From a virus: a stretch of DNA of 64,000 bases. A model generated the notes under the pieces. That model saw nothing but the letters and a program-made list of their open reading frames with translations. It had not been told where the DNA came from and did not search any database. The DNA is taken from the IMG/VR virus record IMGVR_UViG_3300046170_000524. The stretch is one strand, 5' to 3'. This document shows positions 16,358 through 37,434 of the stretch, piece by piece. Both the position numbers and the translations under genes were made by a program. Position 1 is the first letter of the stretch. Each line of letters begins with the position of its first letter.

Positions 16358-16858
16358 ATGGACAATATATCCGAAAGCAATAATTCTAATAAAATAGTTA
16401 AATCCCAATTATTTCATATCTGGAAAAAATCAAGATTAATGTATGATATGGTTAAGGACGAAACTGTATTAGAAGACTGGGTTAAGAAAAGTATTTTTGA
16501 AGCTTACGAAAACATAGACCAAGCTCTACAATACGCTGAGTACGAAAAAATATTTCCAAATCAGAAAGAGCAGGGGGAAGTCGGCGATAAAGAGAAAAAT
16601 AATTATCTTAGTAATCAAGATAAGCGTTATCCGACTCCCGCTTCTCAAGAAACTGGGGATCAATTTATGACAAGATGCATTCTCGACGCAAATATGAAAA
16701 AAAGATACCCTGTTCAGGGAGATAGGTTTGCGGCGTGCATGTCTATTTTTAATGATAAGAAAGATGAAGGATCCACAAATCCTGGAGAGAAATTTGAAGA
16801 CCCGATGGAAGTTAAGGATAAGGAAGAAATTAATCCTGTTAAACCTTTGCTTCCGTAA
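16358..16858 (+). CDS. Hypothetical protein with Cys-pair helical motif
   Basis: PTPASQETGDQFMTRC...RYPVQGDRFAACMSIF motif. Confidence 0.55.
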   Translation: MDNISESNNSNKIVKSQLFHIWKKSRLMYDMVKDETVLEDWVKKSIFEAYENIDQALQYAEYEKIFPNQKEQGEVGDKEKNNYLSNQDKRYPTPASQETGDQFMTRCILDANMKKRYPVQGDRFAACMSIFNDKKDEGSTNPGEKFEDPMEVKDKEEINPVKPLLP

Positions 16859-19310: not shown

Positions 19311-19317
19311 TTTCATG

Positions 19318-19326
19318 TAATTACAC
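19318..19326 (-). promoter_or_regulatory. GTGTA-class putative phage late promoter
   Basis: Minus-strand GTGTAATTA; 11 nt to ATG 19310. Confidence 0.55.
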
Positions 19327-19332
19327 TGTAAA

Positions 19333-21891
19333 TTATTTAATATCAGACATTTTCATATATATCTTTTCATCCATTATATTCAATGAATCTAAAAAAACTA
19401 TATCTTCACCTTTTCTTCCGTATACTACTATTATGTTCTTTTTTGATGGAGTTTTCTTTTTTGATTCAAAATATCTGTCATAAAAATTACCTCTTCTTGA
19501 GTTTAAGAGCATGGCATCATATTTACCATGTTCATCTGTAATTGATAGTTTCATATATTTATTTCCATTACGAGAAGTTCTTTTGATGCAATCTTCTACA
19601 ACTCCGATAAATTTACCTTTGTCATCTGAATTCATAAGATTTAAGTCCCTTGAATCTTTTAATGCCTCATAGGAGTCCATAAAGCATGATTTTAGTGAAG
19701 AGCTGTGACTGTATCCAAGCAACTCTGTTTCAAAATACCAATTAGCAAAACCTTGATACATTTTATTTTTATCGTAAATTGACTTATATATGTCATATTT
19801 TTTCTTAAATGTTTTAAATCTAGACTCTTTCATCAAAGGCTTCCCGTCATCTCCAACTAGGTCGCCTTTTTTGGCATCTGCTATGCAGTTTAGAAGTTTA
19901 TATTCATATTTATCACCAAGAGAAATAAAATTGCGTTTCTCTCTATCAGTGAGGAGGTTAAATGCTTGAGCTTCAAGTACCATTAGCGATCTATTTTTAC
20001 CTTTACTTTCTAGAGCTCCAGCTTGTATTAACGCGCTCAAAATACCAATGTTTAATCCTGCTTGCTTTGCTGCGAGAAAGATGTCGTATTTTGTCGGAGT
20101 TTCACTAGAACGAAAATCTCTAAGAGACTGAAGGGATTTCTCGCTTACGCCCTTGATGCTATTTAGTCCAAATCTAATATTTTTACCTTCAATAGAAAAA
20201 TCCATTCCAGACTTAGCTAAGTCGGGGGATAATAATTTAATTCCGAAATTAGATAGTTCTTGGCATACTTTAGCTATTTCTTCTTGTGGAGAAGGCTCGT
20301 ATTTGGTCATTTTTAATAAAGATATAAAAAACTGCTGTGGATAGTTAAATTTTAGATAAGTGGTCCATGCTGATAGAGTTGCGTATGCAAGAGAGTGCGA
20401 TTTGTTAAAAGAATAGTTCGCGCTATCTTCTGCTACACTCCACAAAATGTGGGATATTTCTCTAGGCAGATCGTTTTGCTCTACTTTGTCTTCAATCTTC
20501 TTTTTCCATGCAGGCATTTGATCAACTTTTTTCTTACCAACGATCCTTCTGAGCTGTTCCGCTTCATCAAGAGTGAACCCAACTTTAACCGCCATTTGCA
20601 TTAATTGCTCTTGATAGAGTGGAATTCCTCCTGTATAGTCTAAAACGTCACTAAAAAATTCATGGATGACCTGAGCCTCTTCTGTTTCAGAATATGTGGC
20701 ATAGTTATCTAAAAATTCTAATGCACCTGGCCTTCCAATTGCCACAACTGCACTAAGCTGCTCTAGGTCTTTTGGCTTGATTTTCTTGCAGACCCTATAG
20801 TTTGTGTCAGACTCAAGCTGAAAAAGCCCGTGAGGCGCCTTCAGGCCTTGCAGAGGTTTATATACGTCTGCGTCATTTAGGTCTACAGCGGAAATATCCA
20901 TGTCTAAGTTGCGACACACATCATAAATCACACTTAATGTTCTTAAACCTAAGATATCAAACTTTACCATAAGCTCTGCAACCCAATTCATGTCGTACCC
21001 TGTCACTAAAGCTCCATCATTTGATTTTTGAATTGGGCAAATATCAGTAATTTTTTGGAAAGAAATTGCGATTCCGCTAGGGTGTACGCCAGTGTTTTTA
21101 TTTAAACCTTCTAGCTTAAGAGCGATCTCAAAGACTTCTGCGTTATTAGCTGCCCAATCTGCAAATTTTTCACTCTCTTCTATTGCAGATGAAATTGGCA
21201 TAACAACTCCAAACTTTTTTGGAATGGTGTCGCTAACCTCATTAACTTCTTGCTCAGAAAATTCTCCAGCAATTTTTCCGCATTCCTTTATACAGAGCTT
21301 TCCGCTAAGAGTGTTTAGCGTTAATATTTTAGCTGTACGAGCAGGATGTTTTTTTTCTATGTATTCTATAACCTCAGCCCTTCTTTCATAAGCAATATCA
21401 TTATCCACGTCAGCCAAAAGGCTGCCATCAAGATATGTTGTTCCGTTTTTTTCTATTTTTCTTGCCCTACTTTTAGAAACAAAACGCTCGAAAAATAAGC
21501 TGTATTTAACTGGATCAACATTAGTTACGCCAATTAAGTATAAAACTAGGGAGCCCGCAGCAGATCCTCTGCCTGGGCCCGTAGGTATATCATTTTCGTG
21601 GCAATAATTTATTATATCCCAGTTTAATAAAATATAATCTATAAACCCTAGCTCATCTAAGATTTTAAGCTCTGATTTTGCTCTATCAAAATATTCTTTC
21701 TTATTTTTAAATTTATCTATACCTCTATCATAAACTCCTTTATGGCATAGCTTACGTAGAAAGTCGAAGTTTGAAATATCTTCTGATGCATCAAGCATTT
21801 CATAGTATTTCTTTTCGATTTTAATTTCTGGTAATTTTACGCCTGGAGGTGCACAATCTTCGTAATCTGTAAACTGTTCTGTAAAACTCAT
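19333..21891 (-). CDS. dnaE: DNA polymerase III alpha catalytic core, lacking the PHP domain
   Basis: GPGRGSAAGSLV, LFFERF, ADVDND, HPSG, KFDILGL, YQEQLM, FNKSHS. Start placed at ATG 21891, which overlaps the upstream stop (TAATG). Confidence 0.93.
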   Translation of the reverse strand: MSFTEQFTDYEDCAPPGVKLPEIKIEKKYYEMLDASEDISNFDFLRKLCHKGVYDRGIDKFKNKKEYFDRAKSELKILDELGFIDYILLNWDIINYCHENDIPTGPGRGSAAGSLVLYLIGVTNVDPVKYSLFFERFVSKSRARKIEKNGTTYLDGSLLADVDNDIAYERRAEVIEYIEKKHPARTAKILTLNTLSGKLCIKECGKIAGEFSEQEVNEVSDTIPKKFGVVMPISSAIEESEKFADWAANNAEVFEIALKLEGLNKNTGVHPSGIAISFQKITDICPIQKSNDGALVTGYDMNWVAELMVKFDILGLRTLSVIYDVCRNLDMDISAVDLNDADVYKPLQGLKAPHGLFQLESDTNYRVCKKIKPKDLEQLSAVVAIGRPGALEFLDNYATYSETEEAQVIHEFFSDVLDYTGGIPLYQEQLMQMAVKVGFTLDEAEQLRRIVGKKKVDQMPAWKKKIEDKVEQNDLPREISHILWSVAEDSANYSFNKSHSLAYATLSAWTTYLKFNYPQQFFISLLKMTKYEPSPQEEIAKVCQELSNFGIKLLSPDLAKSGMDFSIEGKNIRFGLNSIKGVSEKSLQSLRDFRSSETPTKYDIFLAAKQAGLNIGILSALIQAGALESKGKNRSLMVLEAQAFNLLTDREKRNFISLGDKYEYKLLNCIADAKKGDLVGDDGKPLMKESRFKTFKKKYDIYKSIYDKNKMYQGFANWYFETELLGYSHSSSLKSCFMDSYEALKDSRDLNLMNSDDKGKFIGVVEDCIKRTSRNGNKYMKLSITDEHGKYDAMLLNSRRGNFYDRYFESKKKTPSKKNIIVVYGRKGEDIVFLDSLNIMDEKIYMKMSDIK

Positions 21892-22535
21892 TATACTTCT
21901 ATCTCCCATATCATTTTTTTGAATACTTCGTAGTTAACTCTAATGTCATATAAAGCATCATGCAATTTTTTCTCATCAAAGTCAACATCAAAATCTTTGC
22001 AGCATTGCTTTAGATTACAACTTAAGCCTCTCTCGATAAGGTGGTTAAGTCGATATTGCCACGCTAAAAAATTATCGTCTTTGTCTAATCTAATTCTTTT
22101 CTTTAGAGCTTTTGCTAGGCAAAGAGTGTCTACTAGGTGTTCTGTGTAGCTAAAATCAGCCTCTGCATTTTCATCAATTAATTTTCGATGAACATTATGC
22201 ATGTAAACATCAAAACCTAATAGATTATGGCCAACCTTGAGATATGAGTCGTCATACAAATATTTCTCAAAGTGATCTAATGCGGCTTTGGGGCATGTAG
22301 CTTTTTTCTTATACTTTGCCTCGGTAAAGCCAGTAATTTTTGCGGCATCAGGGGATACATTTAATTCTTCCCACTTAAGCCAATAATCTTTCTGTTCAAC
22401 AATTTTGTTGTTTTCTATGACAAGAAATGCTAATTGCCATGGTTTATTATTTGAAACAAGATTTAAATTACATGTTTCATAATCGAACAGTAAATACTTT
22501 TTATTCTTTTGAAATCTAAGCAGTGATTCTTTCAT
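21891..22535 (-). CDS. DEDDh 3'-5' exonuclease (Pol III epsilon-like)
   Basis: LFDYET, GHNLLGFD, DTLCLA, HDALYD. Confidence 0.88.
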   Translation of the reverse strand: MKESLLRFQKNKKYLLFDYETCNLNLVSNNKPWQLAFLVIENNKIVEQKDYWLKWEELNVSPDAAKITGFTEAKYKKKATCPKAALDHFEKYLYDDSYLKVGHNLLGFDVYMHNVHRKLIDENAEADFSYTEHLVDTLCLAKALKKRIRLDKDDNFLAWQYRLNHLIERGLSCNLKQCCKDFDVDFDEKKLHDALYDIRVNYEVFKKMIWEIEV

Positions 22536-23038
22536 TGAATGTCTTTTCTTTGTGTGTTGTTATAATCGATAAATAATTCTTCATCTTTAAGAATTTCTTT
22601 ATTTGTAGTAAATCGAAAACAAAAATCTTTATAATCTATATTATAATCTATATTATTTTTTTGTGAGTGATTGTATATCATGCCATATCCCAATACAGTG
22701 GCTGTTGAAAAAATTTTATTTAAATCCTTATAACCTAGGGAATTAAGCTCTTCAATGAACGTATTTGCAATTTCTTCGTCATCTATATTAAGTAAAAATT
22801 TACTCCTAAAGTCGAGTTTTTGATTCTGTTCTGCGCTTATTTTTTTATCATAAAACATAGAGAAAATGTATCTTTTAAGCTCCGCGTCCTGCACTTCAAT
22901 TGGGCAACCAGATACGATAAAGTGACACTCTTCGATAACTTTTCCTGCCTCTATATTTTGATCTGCAAAAACTCCTCTACCCATTTTTTCTGTATTTCTT
23001 ACAGAAATACATTCTGGCTTAACTAGATTGCTTTTCAT
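22532..23038 (-). CDS. SET-domain protein (putative lysine methyltransferase)
   Basis: GRGVFADQNIEAG, GMIYNHS and EELFIDY are SET motifs I, III and IV. The likely start is MKSNL at 23038. Confidence 0.85.
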   Translation of the reverse strand: MKSNLVKPECISVRNTEKMGRGVFADQNIEAGKVIEECHFIVSGCPIEVQDAELKRYIFSMFYDKKISAEQNQKLDFRSKFLLNIDDEEIANTFIEELNSLGYKDLNKIFSTATVLGYGMIYNHSQKNNIDYNIDYKDFCFRFTTNKEILKDEELFIDYNNTQRKDIQ

Positions 23039-23792
23039 TTTTTTTCTTCCAGCTTTCGAAGCAAAATTCATTGCTGCCGAAGTGATCTAAGTTTGGTTTT
23101 GATAATGTTTTATTACCGAAGCTTCTACCAGTGATGCACTTATATGTTTGTAGAGCCTTTACGTCTTTTTTGTTTTTATAATATATACTTTTTGTATGTT
23201 GTGTTTTTAAATTATTACCAGCTGCATACTCTTGAACTTTTTTAGCCACAAAATTATCAAATGGAAGAGAATTATTCTCTATAAACAATGTTGGCTTACA
23301 AAAATCAAAGTTTGGTGTGCAATTGCAAAATTTAATTAAATTATTAAATATAAATGAATCATAAAATGGTACAGCCAGTAGTAAGTCTTTATTTTTCCAG
23401 TATTTTTTTAAAGTCTTGCGATCCACACAATTGAAGTTCTCTGTATTAGCTTCGCTTGATATACTATTTAACAATTTGCATCCATTTGCGTTTTTGGCAA
23501 AGATTATGATCTTATGCGAGGATTGTTGACTTTCTTCTTTAGGGTTGATTTTAGAATCTTCTTTCATGTTTATTCTTAAACCAAAAATTAATTTTAATCC
23601 AAGATTGTCTGCTTGTTTTTTAGCTTGTAGGAATCCAGTTAATGAATCTTCTACAAGAACTACTTCTTTTAATTTATTTTCTGTAGCAATTGTAAAAACA
23701 CTGTCCGACTTACCTTCTTTATGTGTAATTGGATCTTCAAGCGTTAATATACTTTTGCCTATAGAAAAGTGACTTTTAAATAAAGGAATCAT
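23019..23792 (-). CDS. Stand-alone PHP domain of DNA Pol III alpha (N-terminal part of split DnaE)
   Basis: IPLFKSHFSIGKS, VLVEDSLTGF, LIFG, IIIFAKNANGCKLLNSISS align by eye to the DnaE PHP N-terminus. Confidence 0.8.
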   Translation of the reverse strand: MIPLFKSHFSIGKSILTLEDPITHKEGKSDSVFTIATENKLKEVVLVEDSLTGFLQAKKQADNLGLKLIFGLRINMKEDSKINPKEESQQSSHKIIIFAKNANGCKLLNSISSEANTENFNCVDRKTLKKYWKNKDLLLAVPFYDSFIFNNLIKFCNCTPNFDFCKPTLFIENNSLPFDNFVAKKVQEYAAGNNLKTQHTKSIYYKNKKDVKALQTYKCITGRSFGNKTLSKPNLDHFGSNEFCFESWKKKNEKQSS

Positions 23793-23798
23793 GCTAAT

Positions 23799-23827
23799 AT
23801 TCTATAGTAAATATAGTTCAATGTCAA
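23799..23827 (-). promoter_or_regulatory. sigma70-type promoter, leaderless, for the PHP-SET-exo-dnaE operon
   Basis: TTGACA-17-TAGAAT-6-ATG. Confidence 0.8.
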
Positions 23828-23860
23828 GAAAGAAAAGTTGTTAACAGCTATATATTCCTA

Positions 23861-23889
23861 TTGACAATTACCCCCTCAAATGTTAATAT
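23861..23889 (+). promoter_or_regulatory. sigma70-type promoter for nrdA
   Basis: TTGACA-17-TAATAT, 12 nt before the ATG; divergent from the dnaE operon promoter. Confidence 0.75.
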
Positions 23890-23901
23890 TTTAAACACAA
23901 T

Positions 23902-26337
23902 ATGGATATAAAAGTAAAAAAACGAAACGGACGTCTTCAAGACTTTAATGTCGAGAAAATTAATGCTAATGTTGAACGCGCATGTAACGATATCGCTGAT
24001 GTATCAGTAAGTGAAATCGTGCTAGATGCTCAACTTCAATTATACGACAAGATCACAACCAGGGAAATTGATACAGCTCTTATATTAAGTGCTCGAGAAA
24101 AGATCGAAAAGGAACCTAACTATAGTTACGCCGCAGGTAGATTACTACTAAATACAGTATATAAAGAAGTTTTTAAAGAAGGTGTTGATAGTGACGCGTT
24201 CAGGCTTCAATACAGGAAGAGCTTTATTCAAGGAATAAAAAAGCTCGTTAAGGGTGGTAAGCTTAATACTGGAATGTTGGAATATGATTTAGGGAAGCTT
24301 TCTGAAGCTATTCGTATTCGTAGAGATAACTCTTTTAAATATTTGGGTATACAAATTTTAACAGATAGGTATTTTATTAGAGAAGACGATAAAATCATGG
24401 AGGCCCCTCAGTCTTTTTGGATGAGAGTCGCAATGGGCTTAGCGCTAAACGAAGAAAATAAAGAGGATTGGGCTATTAAATATTATGATATGTTTAGTCA
24501 ATTTTTATACACCTCTTCAACTCCTACTCTTTTTAATAGTGGGACTGTCAGATCTCAATTAAGCTCATGTTATTTAAACACTTTTGATGACAGTATTGAT
24601 GGTATTTTTGACGGTGCTTGGCAAGAGGCTCGTAAGAGTAAATATGCTGGAGGCCTAGGTCTTGATGTAACCCCTTTTAGGTCAACAGGTTCATATATTA
24701 AGGGAACTAACGGTGTTTCTAGCGGGCTTGTTCCGTGGCTTAAGATATACAATGATCTTCTTGTCGCAGTGAATCAAGGAGGCAAGCGTCCAGGAGCTGG
24801 ATGCGCTTACTTAGAGCCTTGGCATTTAGATTTTGAAGACTTTTTAAACTTAAGGAGAAACACTGGGGATGACAGGTTGAGGTGTCATGATATGAACACT
24901 GCTTCTTGGATTCCTGATGAATTTATGCGTAGAGTTCAGAATGAAGATGTTTGGTACTTTTTTGATCCAAAAGAATCTGGCCTGCACGATTTGTTTGGGG
25001 CGGAGTTCGATAAAAAGTACAATGAACTATGTAATCAGGCAGAAGAAGGCTTAATTAAAAATTACAGAATAACCCCTGCAAAAGAGTTGTGGAAAAAAAA
25101 TGCTCAAGGTTTTATTTGAAACTTCTCACCCATGGAATACTTTCAAAGATCCGTGCAATATTAGATATACAAATCAACATGAAGGTATTGTTCATAGTAG
25201 TAATTTATGTACAGAAATCACTCTTCACACTAAATCTTCTAAATACGAAAAGGGAGAAAAGACTAATATTGGAGAGACTGCAGTATGTAATCTTGGGTCA
25301 GTCAACCTTCTTAATCATTTAGATGAAAACAATACCTTGGATTATGATAAATTAAAAAATACGATACATACTGCTATTAGAGCTTTAGATAGCGTTGTAG
25401 ATCTTAATTTTTATCCAACTAAGGAAGCGGAGGCTAGCAATTTAAGGCATCGCCCTATTGGTTTAGGCATGATGGCATTGCATGATATTTGTCATAGAAT
25501 GAATATTAATATTGATAGTGATGAGGCTGTAGAGTTCAATGATAAATTATTTGAATTTTATTCTTATCACGCAATATATGCTAGTTCTCTATTAGCTAAA
25601 GAAAAAGGTAGATACGAAACTTTTGATGGGTCTCTGTGGAGCAAAAATATTTTACCTATTGACTCTAATAATAGATTAATGAATTACCGTACAAAATCCA
25701 AGGAGTCTGAAAGAGGTGAGGGGGAAAGCATGAAAGACGAATGGCTTGAATTAAGGGCTCATATATCTGAATTTGGTATGCGTAATAGTAATGTTATGGC
25801 TATTGCGCCAACAGCTACCATCGGCTATATTAATGGAGTAGAGCAAAGTATAGAACCTAATTTTTCTGTGTTGTTTGTTTATGAAAACAAAAGCGGCAAT
25901 TTCTTTATTACAAATGAACACTTTATTAATGACATGAAAAATGCTGGTTTATGGAATAGCGAAATCGCTAAGCTCGTAAAAAGCGTTGATGGGGACCTAT
26001 CTTTACTAAATGGAGATATTCCATCTGAATTAAAAGAGAAATATAAAACAGCGTTTGATCGCGATATGTTTAAACTAATTGAATGTAATGCGGCTCGCCA
26101 AAAATGGATAGACCAAGCGGTAAGCTTTAATTTATACAATAAATCTACTTCCTTAAAGTATTTAAATGATGTTTATATGTCTTGCTGGGAAGCTGGATTA
26201 AAACAACTTATTATCTTCGTAATCGCGCTGCATCCAAAGTAGAAAAAGCTCATAATGATGAAAGTAAAAAAGAAGAACCATCCGCTTGCAGTATAGAAGC
26301 GATGAAGAATGGTGGTACTTGTGAAAGCTGTCAATAG
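23902..26337 (+). CDS. nrdA: Ribonucleotide reductase class I alpha subunit with ATP cone (two apparent indels)
   Basis: ATP cone (VKKRNG), TPTLFN, LSSCY, SNLCTEI, VCNLGS, APTAT. A +1 shift at the A8 run 25093-25100 and a -1 shift at ~26190 restore LKTTYYLRNR...CESCQ* ending at 26337. Confidence 0.92.
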
Positions 26338-26606
26338 TGAATCGACATCAACATTTAAAAGCTTTTAAAGAAGCTATTGTTAGATGTAAATTAATTAGAA
26401 GAGATCTAAGAAGAATTAATTCTAATATAGATTCTATAAATTATAGAAAAAATAGAGATTACGCTGAAACAGCTTATGTTCAAACATTGGAAGAGATAAT
26501 AGATAGAGGTAAAAAGTATCTTTCTCTAAACCCAGAGGCAGATGAATCAATAAGAGTTGCGATAGATATTGAAAAATATCAGCATCTTTTAGATAAATTA
26601 GAGTAA
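26337..26606 (+). CDS. Hypothetical protein
   Basis: 89-aa helical ORF whose GTG overlaps the restored nrdA stop. Confidence 0.55.
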   Translation: MNRHQHLKAFKEAIVRCKLIRRDLRRINSNIDSINYRKNRDYAETAYVQTLEEIIDRGKKYLSLNPEADESIRVAIDIEKYQHLLDKLE

Positions 26607-26614
26607 ACTTAATC

Positions 26615-26643
26615 TTGACTTAGGACGTTATTTATTATACAAT
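26615..26643 (+). promoter_or_regulatory. sigma70-type promoter, leaderless, for nrdB
   Basis: TTGACT-17-TACAAT-6-ATG. Confidence 0.8.
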
Positions 26644-26649
26644 AAAACT

Positions 26650-27663
26650 ATGAATGATAAAACAGGAGAATTACTAACAAAAAATATCGCGGGGGTAAAT
26701 AGAATTTTACCTCATAAACATAAATATGCGTGGGATTTATTTTTAAAGAGTTGTGCCAATAATTGGATGCCTACTGAAATTAGTATGCAAAACGACATTA
26801 AACAATGGAAAAACGATGAAATTACAGAAGACGAAAAATTACTCGTTAAACGCTGCCTTGGATTCTTTGCGGGATCTGAGTCTTTGGTTGGTAATAACCT
26901 GCTGCTTTCGGCTTTTAGATTTATTACTGATGCTGAATGCCGTCAGTATATACTTCGTCAGGCTTTTGAAGAAAGCCTTCACAATCTTACAGTAGTATAC
27001 GTTTGTGATAGTTTAGATTTGGATATAGAAGAAGTTTTTGCCGCTTACGAAACAATACCAAGCATTAAAGCAAAAGATGACTTTTTGATGACTATCACTA
27101 ATGATATTAGTCGCCAAGACTTTAACGCTCACACTACAGAAGGCAAGCAAGAAATTTTACGTAATTTTTTAACCTATTGGATTGTTTGTGAAGGAACTTT
27201 CTTTTTCAGCGGGTTTGCAATGCTATTGGCTTTAGGTCGCCAAAATAAACTTCAAGGAATTTCTGACCAAATTAAATACACTCTTCGCGATGAAAGTTCT
27301 CATATTGCATTTGGCACGTATTTAATTAATACTTTGATCGAGCAAAATCCCGAAATATGGACAGAAGAAATACAGCAAGAATTTGTTGAACATATGAAAA
27401 AAGCTGTTGAGCTTGAAATAGCTTATGCGCACGATGTTCTTCCTACGGGAATACTTGGACTAAATGCAGAAATGTTTGTTGAATATATGCACTATATTGG
27501 AAATCGTAGATTAGAGGGTATTGGTCTAGAGTATCGCTTCCCTAGCGACAAAAACCCTTTCCCTTGGCTTAGTGAGGTTGTTGATGTCCAGGCAATGGGG
27601 AATTTCTTCGAAAGAAGAGTTAGGGAGTATCAACAGAGCGGCTCTTTAGAAGACGATTTCTAA
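26650..27663 (+). CDS. nrdB: Ribonucleotide reductase beta subunit, class Ic-like (no radical Tyr)
   Basis: NNWMPTE, FFAGSESLVGNN, EESLHNLTV, EGTFF, RDESSH, NFFE; Val at the H+4 tyrosine position. Confidence 0.92.
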   Translation: MNDKTGELLTKNIAGVNRILPHKHKYAWDLFLKSCANNWMPTEISMQNDIKQWKNDEITEDEKLLVKRCLGFFAGSESLVGNNLLLSAFRFITDAECRQYILRQAFEESLHNLTVVYVCDSLDLDIEEVFAAYETIPSIKAKDDFLMTITNDISRQDFNAHTTEGKQEILRNFLTYWIVCEGTFFFSGFAMLLALGRQNKLQGISDQIKYTLRDESSHIAFGTYLINTLIEQNPEIWTEEIQQEFVEHMKKAVELEIAYAHDVLPTGILGLNAEMFVEYMHYIGNRRLEGIGLEYRFPSDKNPFPWLSEVVDVQAMGNFFERRVREYQQSGSLEDDF

Positions 27664-28728
27664 TAAAGAAGATTCGACCGTTACTCCTGGGCCAAAAGTT
27701 GCTGAAAAAATATTTTTTTCATTGTTCGAACAATTTTCTAATACTTCTTTTAATACAAATAAAATAGTAGGGCTACTCATATTTCCGTATTGTTTGAGGA
27801 TATTTCTAGAATGTTTTAAATCTGCATCTGGTTTGAATTTTTGAAACGAATCAAGTATCGCTCTTCCTCCAGGATGAATTGCCCAGCAGTCTATAGAGCT
27901 TTCTATTTCTGGCATATACTTAAGAGCTTGATTTATATTTTCGGATATAAAATTTGGAAGATCTGGGTTTAAGGTTAAATCGAAGCCATTATCTCCAACC
28001 TTCCACGCTAAATTTTTTCCATCATCATTTATTACATGAGAATTAAATGATTTCATTTCTAAAAATGGTTGTTCTTTTGTTAATTTTTTATTAGAAGAAA
28101 CTATGCAGGCCGCACAACCATCAGAAAAAATAGAGTTTCCTATAATATAGTTTACATCATCTGTTAGTTTCATGTGCAGAGTACACATCTCAATGCAGAC
28201 AACTAAAACCTTAGCATCTTTATTGCTCTTGCAAAATTCTGATGCGGTTTTTAAGGCTGGAAATGCAGCTTGACATCCCATGAAACCAATATTTACCCTT
28301 TCTATATTTTTATTTAAATTAAATTCATTTATGATCTCTATGTCTAAGCCTGGATTATAGAAACCCGTACATGAAACAGTTATAATGTGGGTAATTTCTT
28401 GTAGGTTTATTTTTTTTGAAATTTTTGATATTGCATTAAAAGCAAGCGGGCCACTGTTTTTTTTATATATATTATTTCTTTCTGAAGTAGAAGGATTATG
28501 CAAAGTATTGTTTTCATTTCTATGGAAAAGTTCTGTTTCAGTAGTTGAAAACTTTAAGTCTTTTACTACAGAGTATCTATTTTTAATGCCAGATTTTTTG
28601 ATTGCTTGTTTAATTAAAAGCTTATACCTTCTATCATCTTGAAAGTGAGTGATAAAATTGTAAATTTCTTCTTGGCTGCTTTTGCATTGAGGATTTGAGG
28701 TCTCTATGCAGTTTATATATGTTCCCAT
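27646..28728 (-). CDS. Type III polyketide synthase (chalcone/stilbene synthase superfamily)
   Basis: VSCTG, GFMGCQAAF (catalytic Cys), IFSDG, WAIHPGG (His), YGNMSS (Asn), FGPG. Confidence 0.92.
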   Translation of the reverse strand: MGTYINCIETSNPQCKSSQEEIYNFITHFQDDRRYKLLIKQAIKKSGIKNRYSVVKDLKFSTTETELFHRNENNTLHNPSTSERNNIYKKNSGPLAFNAISKISKKINLQEITHIITVSCTGFYNPGLDIEIINEFNLNKNIERVNIGFMGCQAAFPALKTASEFCKSNKDAKVLVVCIEMCTLHMKLTDDVNYIIGNSIFSDGCAACIVSSNKKLTKEQPFLEMKSFNSHVINDDGKNLAWKVGDNGFDLTLNPDLPNFISENINQALKYMPEIESSIDCWAIHPGGRAILDSFQKFKPDADLKHSRNILKQYGNMSSPTILFVLKEVLENCSNNEKNIFSATFGPGVTVESSLLEIVF

Positions 28729-28765
28729 AAAATATATTATGGGAATTTAAAATGAATTCAACAAA

Positions 28766-30070
28766 TTAGCCCAAAATATCTAATAAGGGCTCACCTTTAT
28801 GGGCTATAGTAAAAGGCCTGCCTGATGGAGAATATTGGTAGTCATTTAGTGGAAGCCCTAAAGTATGCGCAATCGTTGCATTTAAGTCTTCTGGCTTGAT
28901 TGGCTTACCTTTTGTGGGAGTACGGCCTGTTTTGTCAGTTTCCCCATAAGTCATTCCACCTTTAACTCCTCCCCCCGCCAAAAAAGCGGTAAAACAATAA
29001 GGCCAGTGATCTCTTCCGTCTCTTCCATTGATATTTGGAGTTCTTCCAAATTCAGAAGTTAAAACCACTAAGGTGTCAGAAAGCATACCTCTTCGGTTTA
29101 AATCAATTAACAGGCCGCTTAAAGCTTGATCGATGTCAGTACAATTTGCTGCAACTCTATCAAAGTTATTATCATGCGTATCCCATCCACCTCTTGTTAC
29201 TTCAACGTATCTTACGCCATGCTCTACGAGCCTTCTTGCTAATAAGCATCCTTTTGCAAAATTAGTTTGACCATAAAGATTGCTTGTGGACTCAGGCTCT
29301 TTTGTAATGTCAAAAGCATTTAAGTCATTACTATTCATTAATTTAATTGCGTCTTTGTATAGAGTCAGAGTAAGCTCTTACTTGTTTTCTGCGGGAACTG
29401 GGTGGAAAAATTCTCATTTAGATGCCTCTGCGATAGATATTCTGCTTTGAAAATGCTCGTGATCTAGAGTATGATGCCATTTTGCTATTGGCTAGTCCTG
29501 CGGCTTGGATTATTGATTGGTAAGGCGCCGTATTTAGATTCTAGAAAGCCTGCGCCGCCTCCGCCTCCCCCTATTTTAACATTGGACTGGGTATGGTTCT
29601 GTTGATTGCACCTCCAAGTTTGGACACCCAGCTACCAAATGTTGGGTGCACAATTGTGCCTCTTTTCAGGTAGCTGGTATGCATTAAGATAACTCGCTTG
29701 CTCATGAGCTCCCTGGCTTGTGTTCATTGTTTTAATTATTGCTCCATGATGCATAAGCTCGTGCGGTCTTTGGTAGGTTTTCTGATAAGAATCACTCCGT
29801 CCGCGCTTGTTGGAATAGATTTTGTCGGCCCCTGAATATCTGGCGCGTCTGGCTTCGGCCCAAATGTATCAAGGTGAGACATGGCTCCTCCCATATTTAA
29901 ATATATTACGTGCCTTGCTGTTGGTACTCTGGCTGCCTGGCTCTAAGCGCGCTAACACTGTTATGTATATACGCTCCTGCCATTGGCATAAGACCCACCC
30001 CAAAACATGCTTTTGCAGCATGAGCTATAAATTCTCTTCTTCCTAATTCGTCTATTGTATTAAAGTTCAT
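28766..30070 (-). CDS. DUF1501-family Tat-exported protein (multiple apparent indels in the 5' half)
   Basis: GRREFIA twin-Arg signal; stitched frames give HVIYLNMGGAMSHLDTF, QGAHEQA, HPTFGSW. Intact C-terminus GCLLARRLVEHGVRYV, GGWDTH, SEFGRTP, GRDHW, GGGVKGG. Confidence 0.85.
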
Positions 30071-30077
30071 AATAGAC

Positions 30078-30086
30078 TTATTACAC
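30078..30086 (-). promoter_or_regulatory. GTGTA-class putative phage late promoter
   Basis: Minus-strand GTGTAATAA; 11 nt to ATG 30070. Confidence 0.6.
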
Positions 30087-30125
30087 AATTTTGAGAAAAG
30101 TCAACAGAAAGTGGTATGATATATT

Positions 30126-30575
30126 GTGCGGTTTTTATTGCTTATATTCATTATACCCAGCATTTTATGCGCTAGATTACAAAGAGAAGATTATTTAGAT
30201 AATTGTGATTGGTGCAAAAATCAAGCTAAGTCTACTCAGCCATTAGATATCGGCGAATGGAGTATGAGATGTAAGCAAAAACCGAAACCAATATGGTTTA
30301 ATTATAGAAATATAGGCAGAGCATATGGAACTTATAAAGAAAAAACTTCTATGTGTTGGATTTATTCTGAAAAATTAGGTTGGATATACAACACCCCTCA
30401 ATATAAAGATTATATTTATACTCACAAACTTGGATGGATCTACGTAAAAGATGGCAAGGTTTATGTCTTCAAAAAGAAAAAGTGGGATTATTTTACAAAT
30501 ATAAATTCGTGTGTGTTTATTAATGTCCAGATTATTTCTTTGTATGCCTCTTTCTTGTCTTTTAATGACGATTAG
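30126..30575 (+). CDS. Exported protein with repeated LGWIY motifs
   Basis: Signal-like N-terminus; WIYSEKLGWIY and YIYTHKLGWIYV repeats; TGg-TATGAT 5 nt before the GTG. The 3' end is uncertain because it overlaps the convergent gene. Confidence 0.6.
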   Translation: MRFLLLIFIIPSILCARLQREDYLDNCDWCKNQAKSTQPLDIGEWSMRCKQKPKPIWFNYRNIGRAYGTYKEKTSMCWIYSEKLGWIYNTPQYKDYIYTHKLGWIYVKDGKVYVFKKKKWDYFTNINSCVFINVQIISLYASFLSFNDD

Positions 30576-32763
30576 TAAATATTGTTAATTTCTTTTGAGG
30601 AGGGCTTTCTGTTTAATATATATCTATATCCTGCTTGTAATTTTATCATCTAATGACTTTTGCGACTGCACTGCTTTTATAATTTCAAAGTTTTTATTTT
30701 TTAATAACCTTGTTTCTACAAAACCGTTAAGCAAGATTGAGTACCTGGGTCGCAGAGGCGCTTTTATTTGCGTTTTCGATCTGCTCCCTATCTGAACCAC
30801 CAAACTCACGAATAAGGTGCCCTACGGGCGCAGGAGAAGGTAGTTCTGAGGCTCTTACGGAATTACGATCTTTTACAAAGTTTTGCTTGTAATCGTCTTT
30901 CTTGGTTTGTTGCTGGGATTTAAATTTATCAACACAAGATTCGCAGCAAAATGCAACCGTCTCTCCGTTTTCATTAATAGCTAATAAAGTTGGATCAATA
31001 GCTCTGCCAGGTTTAATTGGGCAATCTGTATTTATTGGTTCTGTGAATTTTGGTTTATTTGTTGTTTTTGGCCTTTCGGTTTTATTTATTTTGGCCATAA
31101 GATCTTGAAATAATTCTTCACCAGTCATTGCCGAAAAGTTTTGAAACTCTTCGTAACCTTTTGTGTTTTGCTGAAGTTTTCTAGAATCTATATCGTTAAA
31201 CGTTAAATTTACTAATGAATCCCAGACTTGTTCGCCACTCATTCTTTCAAGCATTGGCCCTTGATAGAAATATGGAATAGCGTTGTGAGATTGTTTTTCA
31301 GAATTTGGTCCTGCGATAATCCATTTTACATCTACAGGCATAGACTGATCTTTATTATCTTTTGGGATAACATCTCTTATTACAGATTGACGCTGAAAAG
31401 TTTTTGTGTTATATAATACCCTTAAAAACTCTTTTAAATCGTAATCTAAAGCTACCATAACTTTTTCCAAATGTAGCTGAAGTTTTGGATCTGTAGCTAA
31501 TGTATCATCAAACATGTTATCAATTGGCTCAATTAAAGCTAGTCCAAAAGCTTCTTTCCATAACCTATTTACAATAACAGCTGTAAATCTAGGATTCGAA
31601 TCTGTTGCAAGCCAATTTGCATATATTTCTCGAGACCCTGCTTGAGGAGCTTTTGTTTTTATGTCGATTTCTTTTCCAAAAATTGTTTTTCCAGATAACA
31701 TTTCGCTCGGCTTTGCGTTATCATATTGATAGTCATTTGGTAAATTAATTTTTCCTGAACCCAGGCTATCTAGACCTGTTTGAAGAATGTCTTGAATGCC
31801 CCTAGATTCATTTCTTAGCTGTCTAGATTTTTGCGGCTCACCTGCTTGCTCTAGCCTTCTTTGTTCTGTATTAACCAATCTATTAAATTGACCTAAATTA
31901 TCAACACCTCTTCTTCTTAGATTTGTCGAACCGCTTGTGAACGCAGCCATTTCGTAGAATTGTTTTTGTGTCCAGCGATCAAATGGATGATCATGGCACT
32001 GGGCGCATTCAAGACTAGTGCCAAGAAAGATGCGAACTGTATTGGCCATATTGTCGAGGGGCATGTTTACATCTCGCGCAAAGTAACTAACTCCTTCATT
32101 ACCTCTTTCCCATAAAGCTCCAGATGAAGAAAGCATTTCTCTTACCCAAACATCATATGGTCTATTATTTGATATAAATTCTTTTACATAATTTTTATAT
32201 GGTATACCTGATACTCTATTATTTAATCTATCTTTTATTCTTAATATATCAGCCCAGAAGTTGAACCAATGACTCACATACCCTTCGCTGCCTAATAGTT
32301 GATCTATTAATTTTGATCTTTTGTTTTTGTCTTTACTATTTAAAAAGGTGTCTACTTCCGTTAACGACGGAGTTCTTCCGATAACCTTTAAATAAGATCT
32401 GCGCAAAAATGTAGCATCATCAACTTCTTTGTTTGGTTTGAGGTTATATGATCGTAATTTTGTTTCAATTAAACTATCAATATATCTTGCATGGGTATTT
32501 AAATCTTTATCTGATAGTGGTTTTTTAAATTTCGGCAAAGCTTCGTGGCTTGGCGGGAAGTTGTTTTTGATATAAGCTTGATTATCTTCTGTAAGAGAAT
32601 CTATTGCTATTCTAAATAATTGCAGGTCACTTGCTCTTTTTATTAAAGCGTGAGTTGCATTTGCCTCAAGAATATCTCCTTTTAAATCTTTTCCGTTATT
32701 AAAATAAAGAGTATCAGCGAAACAGTAAATTGATGATAATAATAGTAAAAGTAGTTTTTTCAT
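30488..32763 (-). CDS. DUF1549/DUF1553 (PSD1-type) secreted protein with SHD1-like N-terminus, CxxCH and YHS-like insert (3' indels)
   Basis: Signal peptide; DATFLRRSYL..IGRTP, HWFNFWADILR, FLGTSLECAQCHDHPFD, NPRFTAVIVNRLW, YDLKEFLRVL. Shifted frames continue to EIIWTLINTHEFIFVK* at 30488. Confidence 0.88.
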
Positions 32764-32770
32764 AATAAAA

Positions 32771-32779
32771 TTATTACAC
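32771..32779 (-). promoter_or_regulatory. GTGTA-class putative phage late promoter
   Basis: Minus-strand GTGTAATAA; 11 nt to ATG 32763; TTGACA also lies 16 nt upstream of the TA. Confidence 0.6.
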
Positions 32780-32818
32780 TATTTGATTAATTTGTCAAGA
32801 AGTTTTTTAATCGCGCCA

Positions 32819-32849
32819 ACAAAAAAGCCGCCCATTTCTGAGCGGCTTT
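32819..32849 (-). terminator. Rho-independent terminator
   Basis: Minus strand GCCGCTCA-GAAA-TGGGCGGC-TTTTTT. Confidence 0.85.
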
Positions 32850-32872
32850 AGGAACATTATATTAGATAAAGT

Positions 32873-33112
32873 TTAATCTTTATCGCTTTTTTGCTTAAAA
32901 AGCGCAACGATAAGCAAAAGAGTGATAATTCCCGCTAAGGAAGCCCCTTCTCCTACGAATCCTGTGACAACATCCTGAAGGTTGCCAATAACATTAATGG
33001 GTGCTCCTGCGCCAAATACGACCTGGGCGACAACGAGCAATCCGATAATAGAGAGCAGGACACTGGTAACTCCTCCTGCGTAATTTTTGATTGTATCTAT
33101 TGTATTTTTCAT
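32873..33112 (-). CDS. Small inner-membrane protein (2 TM)
   Basis: MKNTIDTIKNYAGGVTSVLLSIIGLLVVAQVVFG...LAGIITLLLIVALF; start placed at ATG 33112. Confidence 0.7.
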   Translation of the reverse strand: MKNTIDTIKNYAGGVTSVLLSIIGLLVVAQVVFGAGAPINVIGNLQDVVTGFVGEGASLAGIITLLLIVALFKQKSDKD

Positions 33113-33119
33113 AATTAAA

Positions 33120-33773
33120 TTAGAAAGAAAAGGTGAATGATGCGGAAAGTACGTCTTCTCCGTCAATTGAGTCTGAGTCTACTCGATCGTATCCAGCAGA
33201 AGCTTGAACTGAATCTGTCAAGGTTTTTGATAAAGATAATCCGAGAGAATAATAATCATTATCTTCAATGCCGTATCTATCGGAATTACCTAAAGCGCCA
33301 GCCAATGTCAAGTCTGCGAAGTTCAGGTCAAAAGTATGAGAAGCTCCACCTTCAAATACATAATTATTATCGCTAGTATCTCTAAGAATTAAAAAATACG
33401 GGGATAAGGCATAATTAAGACTTAATTCAAGGGCTGCATCAAGTTGACTGCCTCCATCGATGATTTCTTCATGCTCAAGTCCGACATAAACGTTTAATAA
33501 GTCTCCAATTGCGCTGGAAACGCCGCCAGAGAAAATATAAACACTCTTTCCATCAGAGAGCTCGTCAAAAGATGAAACTGAGCCTTCTACGTTCAGACTT
33601 TCGACTTCTGCGCCATAAGATACTGAAGCCGAAATACTTTCTTCGGTCAAAAGCGAACCTTTACTGAATGTATCGGTGCCATAACCCAAGGAAACGGCGC
33701 CTGATCCAGCATGGACTGCGTTAATAAAAAAAGCTGCTACAAGAGCAGTAACTGTTATTAGTTTGGTTTTCAT
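33120..33773 (-). CDS. Outer-membrane beta-barrel protein
   Basis: Sec signal peptide, alternating amphipathic strands and C-terminal SASFTFSF (BAM-type terminal Phe). Confidence 0.75.
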   Translation of the reverse strand: MKTKLITVTALVAAFFINAVHAGSGAVSLGYGTDTFSKGSLLTEESISASVSYGAEVESLNVEGSVSSFDELSDGKSVYIFSGGVSSAIGDLLNVYVGLEHEEIIDGGSQLDAALELSLNYALSPYFLILRDTSDNNYVFEGGASHTFDLNFADLTLAGALGNSDRYGIEDNDYYSLGLSLSKTLTDSVQASAGYDRVDSDSIDGEDVLSASFTFSF

Positions 33774-33787
33774 AATTAAAACTCCAG

Positions 33788-33816
33788 ATTATAAAACAAA
33801 AACTATCGTTTGTCAA
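33788..33816 (-). promoter_or_regulatory. Perfect-consensus sigma70 promoter for the OMP operon
   Basis: TTGACA-17-TATAAT. Confidence 0.85.
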
Positions 33817-34238
33817 GTAATTTTTATTCTAGTCTTTGATTTTTCTTTTTTTCTTGGTATTGTAATCTCTAATATGCCATTATTCATTTTTGCTGATATT
33901 TTTTCTTGATCCAATTCAGAGCTTATTTTAAATGTATTTTTAAATCCATCTTTAAATATTTGTTGTTGAGTATATTTTCCTTCGATAGATTCTTCTTTTG
34001 GGCTTTGATAAGAAACAATTAATTTATCAGCTTGACAGTCGATGTTTATATCTTCTTTTGGTATGCCAGGAGTAAGAAGTTCTATTACGGTTTCTTTTTC
34101 TTTGGAAATAACATTTGCTTGTACTGGATAATCATCTAAGCTTTTAAACTCATCATTATCTAATAAGTCATCAAATATATTTTTAAATGTATCAGAAATA
34201 AATTTTGGTTGATATTGTTTTTTTAAGTAGTATGCCAT
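33813..34238 (-). CDS. hsp20: Small heat-shock protein Hsp20
   Basis: PVQANV, LLTPGIPKEDINI, FKNTFKI, ISAKMNNGILEITIP. Confidence 0.9.
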   Translation of the reverse strand: MAYYLKKQYQPKFISDTFKNIFDDLLDNDEFKSLDDYPVQANVISKEKETVIELLTPGIPKEDINIDCQADKLIVSYQSPKEESIEGKYTQQQIFKDGFKNTFKISSELDQEKISAKMNNGILEITIPRKKEKSKTRIKIT

Positions 34239-34322
34239 TTTGTCTCTTTTTTTAAGTGTTATAAACTAGTGTGTAAATTTGTCTCTTAAATCACTAAATT
34301 CAAGTATTTACTATTAAAGTAT

Positions 34323-34339
34323 TGCTAATAGTATGCCAA
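34323..34339 (-). promoter_or_regulatory. Possible sigma54 (-24/-12) promoter upstream of hsp20
   Basis: TTGGCATACTATTAGCA: GG-N10-GC spacing, with TAGC instead of TTGC. Confidence 0.35.
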
Positions 34340-34343
34340 AAAA

Positions 34344-34940
34344 TTAAGATCTAAACAAAAAAGGTTTCCACTCTTCTCGCTCTCGCTGAAATGGGTGAAA
34401 GAATGGATATGGGTTGGCGGGCTTAAGCTCTTTTCCTTCTTTATTTGTATATGGATAAATTGCCGCCTTCTTGCAATTACAGGTTTGACAAGTAAGCGTA
34501 ACATTATAACTTTCTTTTGTGCCTCCTTTACTTTTTGGGTAAATATGCTCTATTGTCATATCTTTCATGTCAAACTTATCACCGCAAATTTGACAACGAC
34601 CTTTATATCTTTTATATAAATAGCGTAAGTTAGGCTTGTTCTTGGTTTGATAAACCCATTTTGCGGTTGTCAACAAAATGGTTGGAACGGGGTATAATGC
34701 ATTAGAAGAAGAGAGAAATGGTTGACTCTTATAGTAAGATGCTCGAGATGAATCAATCCAATCTTCCCACAATAAAGGTTCTCCTGAGAAACTCAGAGCT
34801 TTAACAGAGGGATTTTTATGCGAAGATGATCCTGAAGATATTAATTTTCTAATACCTTCTTTTGCTGTAGTAATATTAATTGGTGTCCAGAAATGAGACA
34901 GTATTAACACTGTCCTGTCCTTGCTATCAATTAAATTCAA
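34344..34940 (-). CDS. HNH endonuclease (McrA-like)
   Basis: CQICG...TIEHIYPKSKGG...NVTLTCQTCNCKK. Confidence 0.88.
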   Translation of the reverse strand: MNLIDSKDRTVLILSHFWTPINITTAKEGIRKLISSGSSSHKNPSVKALSFSGEPLLWEDWIDSSRASYYKSQPFLSSSNALYPVPTILLTTAKWVYQTKNKPNLRYLYKRYKGRCQICGDKFDMKDMTIEHIYPKSKGGTKESYNVTLTCQTCNCKKAAIYPYTNKEGKELKPANPYPFFHPFQREREEWKPFLFRS

Positions 34941-34942
34941 AT

Positions 34943-36371
34943 TTATTTTTCTTCGTGATGTCCGCCGTTGGAAGAATTAGGTTTTTCATGAGTATAGCCC
35001 ATTTTTTTCATTTTCAAATGATCTTCCATGGTCTTCGCTTTATAGCCTTTGCCTGTTTTTCGGGTCATACATCATATGAGGCTTGAAATCTTCTGCAGCA
35101 TAATCCTTTTTCATTTTTTTAGATTGAGCTTTTTTAATAGCTTCTTTTGACGGGTAATCTTTATCTCCTGGCTTTGCAGCTTTATAGTTTTTGCCCATTC
35201 TTTTTTTCTTTTTTTGAATATTTTCCCAGAGTCCTGCATCAGAAGTTCTCCTTGTTTTTTAAGGAATTGCATCTTGGATGGGCTTAGGTAATTTTTTTTG
35301 CTTTTCAGTTAAACCAGCTTCTCCTTTTTCATATAAAGAGCTTTTCATTTTATCGTATTGTATAGCGCATGCAGCATATGTTTTATCTTTATCCATTCCA
35401 GCTGTATTTACTAAATCTTTATCATAACTTGCGCAATGATCCATAAATGGTTTTTTCATGTAATCTTCAGTAGCTTCAGAAGATTCTTCGGGCTCTTCCA
35501 AGTTTTCTTCTTCTCCTTTAGTTACTTTAGTAACACTTTTTTTACTCCACATTTTACAACTCCAATAACGAGCTTTTGTTTTTGGGCCAGGATTAGAACA
35601 GTTATGACGAGCTCTAAAGTTTTTGCGACGACCAGGGTCATCACGTTTTATTTCCATATTTGGGTCACCGAAATTCACTTTAACGACATTACCTTTTTCA
35701 TTTTTAACATAAACAGAAAACTTTTTTGGCCCTTTTGGCGTTCTGAAAGGTTTGTTTAATTTTTTCCCTTTATTAACTTCTGCTGCCCAACTTTCTTCGC
35801 TAACATATTCTTCGAAACCTAATTCATCAACATCAATAAAAATTGTACTCCACATTTCATCTGTAAACTCTGGGTCTTCTTGTAGCTGATGATTATAAAT
35901 ATCTAACTTTGCTTGAATAAAATCTTCTTCTGTAAAAAAGTTTTCTTCTCTTATGCCATCATCGATAAGAACATTTGCAGAAGCTTTTGCGATATCTTGA
36001 TCTGCTTTTCTGTACGAATCTTTAACTTTGCCTCCTCTAACCATTTTTAAGAATGTATTCACTCGAGCCATAGCCCATTGACCTCTACTTTTGCCTGGTC
36101 TATGGCTAGAAGAAAATGCTCCTGCGCCTCTGCGATAAACTTTCTTTAATTGAGAAAGGGTAACTTTTTTGCTGTATTTAGAATTATGTTCTTTTACCTT
36201 AGATTTTAGGGACTCTAGAACTTTTTCTGAAAAGGTTATTTTGCCACCTTTTTCTCCTGCGCTCCCTGGCTTATTTTTATCTGAGCCTTTGCGTTTTTCT
36301 GATTTTTTTGCGGGTGTTTGCGCTGAACTCTTTGGTCCAGGACGTTTAGCTGAGTGAGATTCATTTTCCAT
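34943..36371 (-). CDS. Modular Lys/Arg-rich phage protein (apparent indels near 35260-35060)
   Basis: Modules KVYRRGAGAFSSSHRPG..WAMARVN and LNKPFRTPKGPKKFSVYV..FGDP..FRARHNC..ARYWSCKMW. Shifted frames continue GLWENIQKK... and FKPHMMYDPKTGKGY...HLKMKKMGYTHEKP to a stop at 34943. Confidence 0.7.
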
Positions 36372-36373
36372 AG

Positions 36374-37408: not shown

Positions 37409-37434
37409 TTTTTGTAGTATTCTAATTTATTAAA

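Follow-up and report, generated by a model that had tools for sequence, protein, structure and literature searches.

A predicted type III polyketide synthase in the variable cargo island of a large uncultured phage

A 64,000-nucleotide stretch of DNA from the IMG/VR virus record IMGVR_UViG_3300046170_000524 (hereafter, the window) carries a gene for a type III polyketide synthase (PKS). The sequence comparisons show that the PKS gene is intact, that it resides in a large uncultured tailed phage, and that it is conserved under purifying selection; with moderate confidence, we hold that the enzyme is functional and makes a phenolic lipid with a role in the envelope. The protein is best described as a divergent new member of a known family, and its novelty lies in the phage that carries it and in its stand-alone state. 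We infer the starter, the product, the timing of expression, and the physiological role of the enzyme from sequence; a long-chain alkylresorcinol is the most likely product, with an alkylpyrone next.

Identity and predicted chemistry of the enzyme

Both halves of the type III PKS fold are recognized by Pfam in the 360-amino acid open reading frame (ORF), with scores of 76.2 bits for Chal_sti_synt_N and 74.6 bits for Chal_sti_synt_C (cut-off 27 for both). The top solved relative by sequence is PKS18 of Mycobacterium tuberculosis (Protein Data Bank (PDB) entry 1TED), which was matched with E values of 3e-44 by a single sequence and 3.5e-76 by a profile at an identity of ~28%; the other solved relatives that rank best are enzymes from Mycobacterium marinum and Ectocarpus and the Steely1 enzyme. 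An AlphaFold2 model generated with 22 sequences as input has a predicted local distance difference test (pLDDT) score of 90.7 and a predicted template modeling (pTM) score of 0.92. All of the matches listed by Foldseek against the PDB are type III PKSs with template modeling (TM) scores of 0.82–0.90, and PKS18 is among the best (TM 0.88). The initial annotation of the window, which was made from its letters, had described an intact type III PKS; the two Pfam domains, the fold match, and the uninterrupted ORF bear this out.

Residues were numbered by counting along the printed alignment with PKS18, and the catalytic codons were checked. The annotation had also reported a full Cys-His-Asn triad and a gatekeeper Phe motif, and both are present: Cys152, His285, and Asn316 are in register with the triad of PKS18, and Phe201, whose position we take to be that of Phe215 in chalcone synthase (CHS), is invariant. 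The GFGPG loop (F345-G346-P347-G348) is likewise invariant in the family alignment. Among 83 bacterial homologs, 71 alignment columns reach a conservation of at least 90%. Because 61 of these are unchanged in all five phage sequences, the identity of the protein as a PKS is not a matter of chance; the remaining 10 columns carry replacements that are specific to the phage clade and conservative in kind.

Two further residues bear on the chemistry of the enzyme. PKS18 and Ectocarpus PKS1 take long-chain acyl starters, and Cys182 of the phage enzyme aligns with the Cys that lies in the long acyl tunnel of PKS18. PKS18 makes pyrones and Steely1 makes a resorcinol. At the position of Trp242, a candidate aldol-switch aromatic, the handful of aligned enzymes have Leu (PKS18 and the M. 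marinum and Ectocarpus enzymes) or Trp (Steely1). The spacing of Trp242 from the triad also fits that of Trp228 in ArsMB, a residue proposed to favor aldol cyclization (PMC13730376); here the two enzymes are compared by spacing alone. PKS18, a long-chain alpha-pyrone synthase, resembles the phage enzyme in its fold, triad, and tunnel Cys, but differs from it in having Leu in place of Trp242, in its low sequence identity, and in its organism and genomic context. Together, Cys182 and Trp242 suggest a long-chain acyl starter and a cyclization of the resorcinol type. We rank a membrane-associated long-chain phenolic lipid first among the possible products: the tunnel and aldol-switch residues favor it, as do the closest relatives, of which the bacterial homologs examined lie in gene clusters of the phenolic-lipid/alkylquinone type (see below).

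Phage residence and the variable cargo island

The PKS gene has phage genes on both sides (Table 1). Its GC content is 0.307 and its GC content at third codon positions (GC3) is 0.235, as compared with GC3 values of 0.24–0.33 in 14 other genes of the window. The convergent 18-nucleotide overlap with nrdB is also present in a 122-kb IMG/VR relative (L001) and in related contigs, and the same junctions are found in independent assemblies. Each of these observations agrees with the initial annotation, in which the AT-rich codons of the gene and its 3′ overlap with nrdB were taken to indicate that it is embedded in the phage rather than a contaminant.

The same record has DNA that starts more than 118 kb before the window, and the identical PKS protein occurs on a 194-kb contig; the phage genome is therefore at least ~180 kb in length. 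L001 is colinear with the window across the 21-kb stretch that was fetched, with 75–86% nucleotide identity, and no integrase was found in this 122-kb relative. The terminase of the window is at most 26% identical to that of any cultured phage, which indicates that the phage has no close cultured relative, and a 15-kb megablast search against GenBank phages gave no match. The window contains no tRNA genes, and PHROGs has no family for PKS, DUF1501, or PSCyt. The replication and chaperone genes in the region 16839–23792 are also unusual for a phage: they encode an AAA+ protein of the two-ring, ClpB-like type, a protein with a SET domain, and a DNA polymerase III (Pol III) alpha subunit divided into PHP, exonuclease, and polymerase-core genes.

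Seventeen contigs encode the identical PKS protein; the 10 listed come from 10 different samples and have the same neighbors around the gene. Samples with the identical gene include JGI 3300048556, 3300049740, and 3300022074 and SRR32281492. On contigs whose ends permit checking, the gene order is PSCyt, a small antisense ORF, DUF1501, PKS, nrdB, orf89, and nrdA. This order is kept around PKS orthologs that are 91% (L001) and 69% (L002 and L097–L100) identical. An ortholog of 67% identity (L003 and L004) has HSP20 upstream and an extra 159-amino acid ORF before nrdB, for which no Pfam match was obtained. The pairwise ratio of nonsynonymous to synonymous substitution rates (dN/dS) for PKS is 0.09 at a dS of 0.49 against L001 and ~0.10 against more distant orthologs; by this measure, the gene is selectively maintained under strong purifying selection. 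In a more distant phage relative (L090), PSCyt and DUF1501 lie between NUDIX and SET, and PKS and nrdAB are missing there. Because contexts differ among relatives in this way, with the 67% ortholog and the PKS-less L090 as examples, the PKS gene is placed in a variable cargo island. The island contains genes for a family 2 glycosyltransferase (GT2), GDP-mannose 4,6-dehydratase, DUF5824, an HNH endonuclease, HSP20, an outer membrane protein (OMP)-like beta-barrel protein, PSCyt, DUF1501, PKS, and nrdB/nrdA. Its equivalent in L090 consists of just PSCyt, DUF1501, and two ORFs.

The pair formed by PSCyt2/PSD1 and DUF1501 recurs across the phage group (window, 28766–32763; L001, 5829–9963; L090, 7704–11293; L091, 5284–9299). 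DUF1501 varies very little from phage to phage (dN 0.02), and none of the 50,697 GenBank phages has it; in the PKS-less relative, it sits with its partner at another position. Between the two genes, on the opposite strand, lies a small ORF with a hydrophobic N-terminus (window, 30126–30575, plus strand; L001, 8231–8617, minus strand), which is called as a 128-amino acid gene in nearly all related contigs and has no Pfam family match.

Several neighbors of PKS are broken in the window. DUF1501 is intact in all relatives at 430 amino acids, PSCyt2/PSD1 has 756–808 amino acids in relatives, and nrdA is a single gene there of 806–811 amino acids. In the window, two changes in T homopolymers, +1 at 25100 and -1 at 26203, divide nrdA among three frames; its C-terminal tail, which ends in CESCQ, lies in a small ORF at 26182–26337. 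Comparison with the otherwise near-identical contig L107 gave 0–5 mismatches per 200 nucleotides outside a patch, with zero in most bins, and 12–15 mismatches plus 2–5 one-base insertions per 200 nucleotides at ~29,200–30,100, where the changes are biased from A/T to G/C; in comparison with L001, the insertions run on to 30,732. Other contigs with the identical PKS have the 430-amino acid DUF1501 wherever the contig end spares the gene, and the 811-amino acid nrdA product where it is reached; the damage is therefore local to this assembly. We considered the broken DUF1501 as a real pseudogene and rejected this on the basis of the intact copies on the identical-PKS contigs. The patch in DUF1501 and PSCyt and the indels in nrdA are most likely consensus errors of this assembly that leave PKS unaffected. 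A 191-kb 'pilon' long-read contig of a 69% relative (L098; ENA ERZ28548088) has frameshifts in most genes and an intact PKS, which illustrates that consensus errors are numerous in the long contigs of these phages.

Expression signals around PKS were also inspected. A promoter-like element ends 5 nucleotides before the PKS ATG, which is not preceded by a Shine-Dalgarno sequence; the PKS mRNA may thus be leaderless or have a very short leader. The 67% ortholog has the same layout in its different context (TTGAAT-N16-TAAAAT-N5-ATG). The five top sigma-70-like sites of the region all lie directly upstream of gene starts (OMP-like, PSCyt, PHP, nrdA, and nrdB). A second motif, GTGTAA or GTGTAC, stands ~10–15 nucleotides ahead of the starts of DUF1501, PSCyt, and numerous other genes, most of them in the structural part of the window, and is missing before PKS; the nucleotide-metabolism genes carry TTGACA-N17-TATAAT-like sites instead. 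These may represent two promoter classes, and there is a hint, no stronger than that, that PKS could be expressed with the nucleotide-metabolism genes rather than with the late genes. A consensus promoter scan found sites to be no more numerous than in shuffled sequence, so these statements about promoters are to be read as positional observations alone.

Table 1 Coordinates of features in the window
Feature	Position	Strand	Remarks
Type III PKS gene	27646..28728	-	Intact; 360 amino acids; ATG start; no internal stop
Catalytic Cys152 codon (GFMGC motif)	28273..28275	-	Aligned to PKS18 Cys175; invariant in 22 sequences
Cys182 codon, long acyl tunnel	28183..28185	-	Aligned to PKS18 Cys205 (1TED; 1TEE is the C205F mutant); invariant
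Gatekeeper Phe201 codon	28126..28128	-	(L/I)F(G/S)DG motif, here SIFSDG; aligned to Phe of PKS18 SLFGDG; invariant
Trp242 codon, candidate aldol-switch aromatic	28003..28005	-	Invariant in family alignment
Catalytic His285 codon (IHPGG)	27874..27876	-	Aligned to PKS18 His313; invariant in 22 sequences
Catalytic Asn316 codon (GNMSS)	27781..27783	-	Aligned to PKS18 Asn346; invariant in 22 sequences
PKS/nrdB convergent 3′ overlap	27646..27663	.	18 nucleotides; PKS stop 27646-27648 (complement), nrdB stop 27661-27663
Promoter-like element TTGAAT-N16-TAATAT	28734..28761	-	Ends 5 nucleotides before PKS ATG; predicted from sequence
nrdB, class I ribonucleotide reductase small subunit	26650..27663	+	Pfam Ribonuc_red_sm, 256 bits; convergent neighbor
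DUF1501	28766..30064	-	37-nucleotide gap upstream of PKS; broken here by many one-base insertions; Pfam match on C-terminal part
PSCyt2/PSD1 (DUF1549/DUF1553), DUF1501 partner	30727..32763	-	Pfam; 3′ end cut by error patch
Strong sigma-70-like site	32798-32770		Upstream of PSCyt2/PSD1
Terminator-like hairpin	32849-32824		Upstream of PSCyt2/PSD1
Probable error patch	29200-30732		~17 one-base insertions, mostly C or G; breaks DUF1501 and 3′ end of PSCyt
Variable cargo island	23019-39110		From PHP (23019-23792) to NUDIX (38700-39110)
Starts preceded by GTGTAA/GTGTAC	3103, 4976, 5734, 11935, 15434, 16358, 19316(-), 36371(-), 47543, 50056, 30064(-), 32763(-)		
Terminase	10046-11917		Phage gene flanking PKS
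Cement protein	13562-14182		Phage gene flanking PKS
Pol III alpha core, with PHP and exonuclease encoded separately	19333-23792		Flank of PKS
DnaB, primase, PD-(D/E)XK nuclease, RecA	39094-44551		Other flank of PKS
Tail-fiber genes	53438-63427		Other flank of PKS

Origin of the gene and probable host

Outside the phage clade, the best identity to the phage PKS was 44% in a search of 5.8 billion protein clusters, and an exhaustive scan of 1.8 billion representatives, made without profiles, is in agreement. A maximum-likelihood tree built from 88 sequences groups the five phage PKSs in a single clade with a Shimodaira-Hasegawa-like approximate likelihood ratio test (SH-aLRT) support of 100 and a stem of 1.55 changes per site. 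At a split supported by 98% SH-aLRT, this clade falls to the side of the Bacteroidota/Rhodothermota group, with which it has a 4-residue deletion in common, and it lies in none of the Verrucomicrobiota groups. A kinship with enzymes of the Planctomycetes-Verrucomicrobia-Chlamydiae (PVC) superphylum, toward which the initial annotation had pointed, is therefore not borne out by the phylogeny. We name no donor of the gene from this tree because of the length of the stem branch and the skewed composition of the phage sequences. The representative library also contains a 4818-residue protein (P0121) with 12 separate stretches that match type III PKS; either several PKSs in tandem or a gene call that runs separate genes together could account for it.

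Homologs of DUF1501 form an unbroken series from 99% down to 80% and 77% identity. The latter two are named proteins of Verrucomicrobiota metagenome-assembled genomes (MAGs), and one such MAG carries the same PSCyt-DUF1501 pair. The host is thus probably a member of Verrucomicrobiota. Because the history of DUF1501 differs from that of PKS, the two genes would have been acquired separately.

Proposed role, alternatives, and significance

The phage enzyme appears to act without dedicated partners. PF01494, PF01209, PF00501, and PF00550 are all absent from the 122-kb relative (G001; 86% complete), and neither the window nor this relative encodes a methyltransferase, flavin hydroxylase, acyl-activating enzyme, or carrier protein. 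Because such partner genes are lacking in both, the enzyme would have to use acyl thioesters of the host together with malonyl-CoA. That a lone gene can suffice is seen with ArsMB, which when produced alone in Escherichia coli (a bacterium without its own type III PKS) gave cell-associated C13 and C15 alkylresorcinols; the product raised resistance to endolysin and H2O2 (PMC13730376). Similarly, planctomycetal enzymes produced in Corynebacterium glutamicum gave C15 and C17 resorcinols (PMC10896814).

These considerations suggest a model in which a long-chain fatty acyl-CoA or acyl-acyl carrier protein (ACP) would prime Cys152, followed by three decarboxylative condensations of malonyl-CoA on the Cys-His-Asn triad. 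The resulting tetraketide would be cyclized, most likely by aldol condensation, to a 5-alkylresorcinol, or alternatively by lactonization to an alkylpyrone. The amphipathic product would then remain in membranes of the infected cell, where its most likely role would be an effect on the membrane or envelope in the form of remodeling or protection. A role in the envelope is suggested by the richness of the island in envelope-related genes (GT2, GDP-mannose dehydratase, OMP-like, HSP20, and periplasmic PSCyt/DUF1501). The initial annotation had proposed a lipid or small molecule that would alter the host membrane, block superinfection, signal, or deter grazers; the present reading narrows this to a probable phenolic lipid associated with membranes.

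In a different scenario, which we regard as unlikely, the PKS feeds a host pathway by carrying out its first committed step, and host enzymes then convert the alkylresorcinol by methylation and hydroxylation into a polyketide-quinone electron carrier or a methoxy-alkylresorcinol. In that case, the phage would boost the respiratory or redox capacity of the cell instead of directly altering its envelope. Each of the three closest bacterial homologs that we examined is encoded near a UbiE-type methyltransferase, an FAD monooxygenase, and YceI, some with MMPL or UbiA; these clusters are of the phenolic-lipid/alkylquinone type. One relative (P0122) is a fusion of PKS and methyltransferase, and phage auxiliary genes often duplicate a rate-limiting step of the host. 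However, the phage enzyme lacks a close host counterpart (identity of at most 44%). The Verrucomicrobiota MAG with the closest named DUF1501 pair gave no match to the phage PKS, and 81 genomes of the order to which this MAG belongs gave weak Pfam matches alone, with the best four loci being 24–27% identical.

Still less probable is that a short starter, or malonyl-CoA alone, is the substrate and that the product is a small aromatic such as phloroglucinol, tetrahydroxynaphthalene, or dihydroxyphenylacetyl-CoA with a use as pigment, signal, or antibiotic. DpgA is the top NCBIfam model for the phage PKS, but its score of 136.9 bits is far below the cut-off of 425 bits. The only other phage-borne type III PKS in GenBank, that of Streptomyces phage ZL12, is annotated as RppA-like, but it is just 24% identical to the enzyme described here. 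The long branch leading to the phage clade would allow a shift in specificity; on the other side, the tunnel residue Cys182 is conserved, and the nearest solved and genomic relatives are tied to long-chain lipids.

It is very improbable that the protein is a plain FabH-like beta-ketoacyl-ACP synthase III (KAS III) that starts fatty-acid synthesis for the phage. The thiolase fold and the Cys-His-Asn triad are common to FabH, and the ORF has weak matches to Pfam ACP_syn_III (30 and 29 bits). Against this, the FabH-type models of NCBIfam score far under their cut-offs (TIGR00747, 29.7 versus 292.1; NF006829, 40.5 versus 249; NF005703, 41.7 versus 304), the Foldseek matches listed are type III PKSs throughout, and the type III PKS motifs GFMGC, HPGG, GNMSS, and FGPG are present. 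An assembly chimera, host contamination, prophage flank, or decaying passenger without a role, to which the frameshifts in DUF1501 and nrdA and one public copy binned in a Flavobacteriia MAG might point, is already contradicted by the recurrence of the same junctions in assemblies from many samples, phage genes on both sides, phage-like GC3, the dN/dS of PKS, intact neighbors wherever the identical PKS occurs elsewhere, and the small size (1.7 kb) of the Flavobacteriia contig.

Several points weigh against the model of a long-chain phenolic lipid that acts in the envelope. The argument from Trp242 draws on few aligned enzymes, and the envelope role is one of guilt by association. The promoter-like element falls under the threshold of the consensus scan. 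Assignment of the host depends on one neighboring gene pair. Given the long stem of the phage clade and its 10 replacements at conserved positions, the specificity of the enzyme may have shifted. Finally, product class is not reliably readable from the sequence of a type III PKS, as the authors of the ArsMB study concede of their own model (PMC13730376). With these points counted, the evidence leans toward the reading as a whole, namely that a functional phage PKS draws on host precursors to make a long-chain phenolic lipid with a role in the envelope.

The phage enzyme has the fold and the Cys-His-Asn triad of alkylresorcinol PKSs such as Streptomyces SrsA, Azotobacter ArsB, the planctomycetal enzymes (PMC10896814), and Pontimonas ArsMB (PMC13730376). 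Its tunnel Cys and its candidate aldol-switch Trp may be further features in common with them, and it is ~35–44% identical to genomic members of the broad bacterial family of long-chain type III PKSs. It differs from these enzymes in being phage-borne, in forming a separate clade on a long branch with 10 clade-specific replacements, and in that its product is a prediction. Moreover, its neighbors are DUF1501 and nrdB, without the adjacent methyltransferase or flavoprotein of srsABC- and hid-type operons.

Type III PKSs were found to be rare in phages. One of 50,697 GenBank phage records, that of ZL12 (pZL12.100), encodes such an enzyme, and two motif-based scans of 2.9 million IMG/VR contigs, which divergent enzymes may escape, returned L001 alone. 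These searches are in line with the statement of the initial annotation that this is not a usual phage gene. ZL12 is a temperate plasmid-prophage of an actinomycete, whereas the phage described here is large, has a relative in which no integrase was found, and probably infects Gram-negative aquatic bacteria. Our literature searches yielded no description of such an enzyme from an environmental phage; the sole statement that they turned up concerns actinobacterial plasmid-prophages, in a survey of actinobacterial prophages that detected type III PKSs solely in those borne on plasmids (PMC10023795).

Like cyanophage psbA, nrdAB, and other phage auxiliary genes, PKS is a host-type metabolic gene in a variable island whose composition has converged on that of the phage; the gene is under purifying selection, is flanked by phage genes in both directions, and has been kept in related phages. 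Phages reprogram central metabolism, and the known classes of auxiliary genes serve central and energy metabolism; unlike these, a PKS of secondary or lipid metabolism does not belong to an established class. To our knowledge, genes for the biosynthesis of secondary metabolites or specialized lipids are rare in phages. A PKS at least 90% identical to that of the window has been deposited under a Flavobacteriia MAG (P0394; NDG53981.1) and probably represents viral DNA that was binned into a bacterial genome. Since this copy is labeled as a bacterial protein, surveys of bacterial biosynthetic potential may count viral genes.

Purifying selection on the gene and its presence in many metagenomes imply that its product, be it a small molecule or a lipid, is of benefit in infection. 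It is tempting to speculate, although we lend this less weight than the reading favored above, that an environmental phage lineage in which no integrase was detected directs polyketide synthesis during infection and, by means of a single enzyme and precursors from the host, loads the membranes of the infected cell with an alkylresorcinol-type phenolic lipid. If so, the lipid could harden the envelope against muralytic or oxidative attack from outside, control the timing of lysis, or chemically exclude competitors, and the enzyme would be the first PKS shown to be a phage auxiliary gene outside the plasmid-prophages of actinomycetes.

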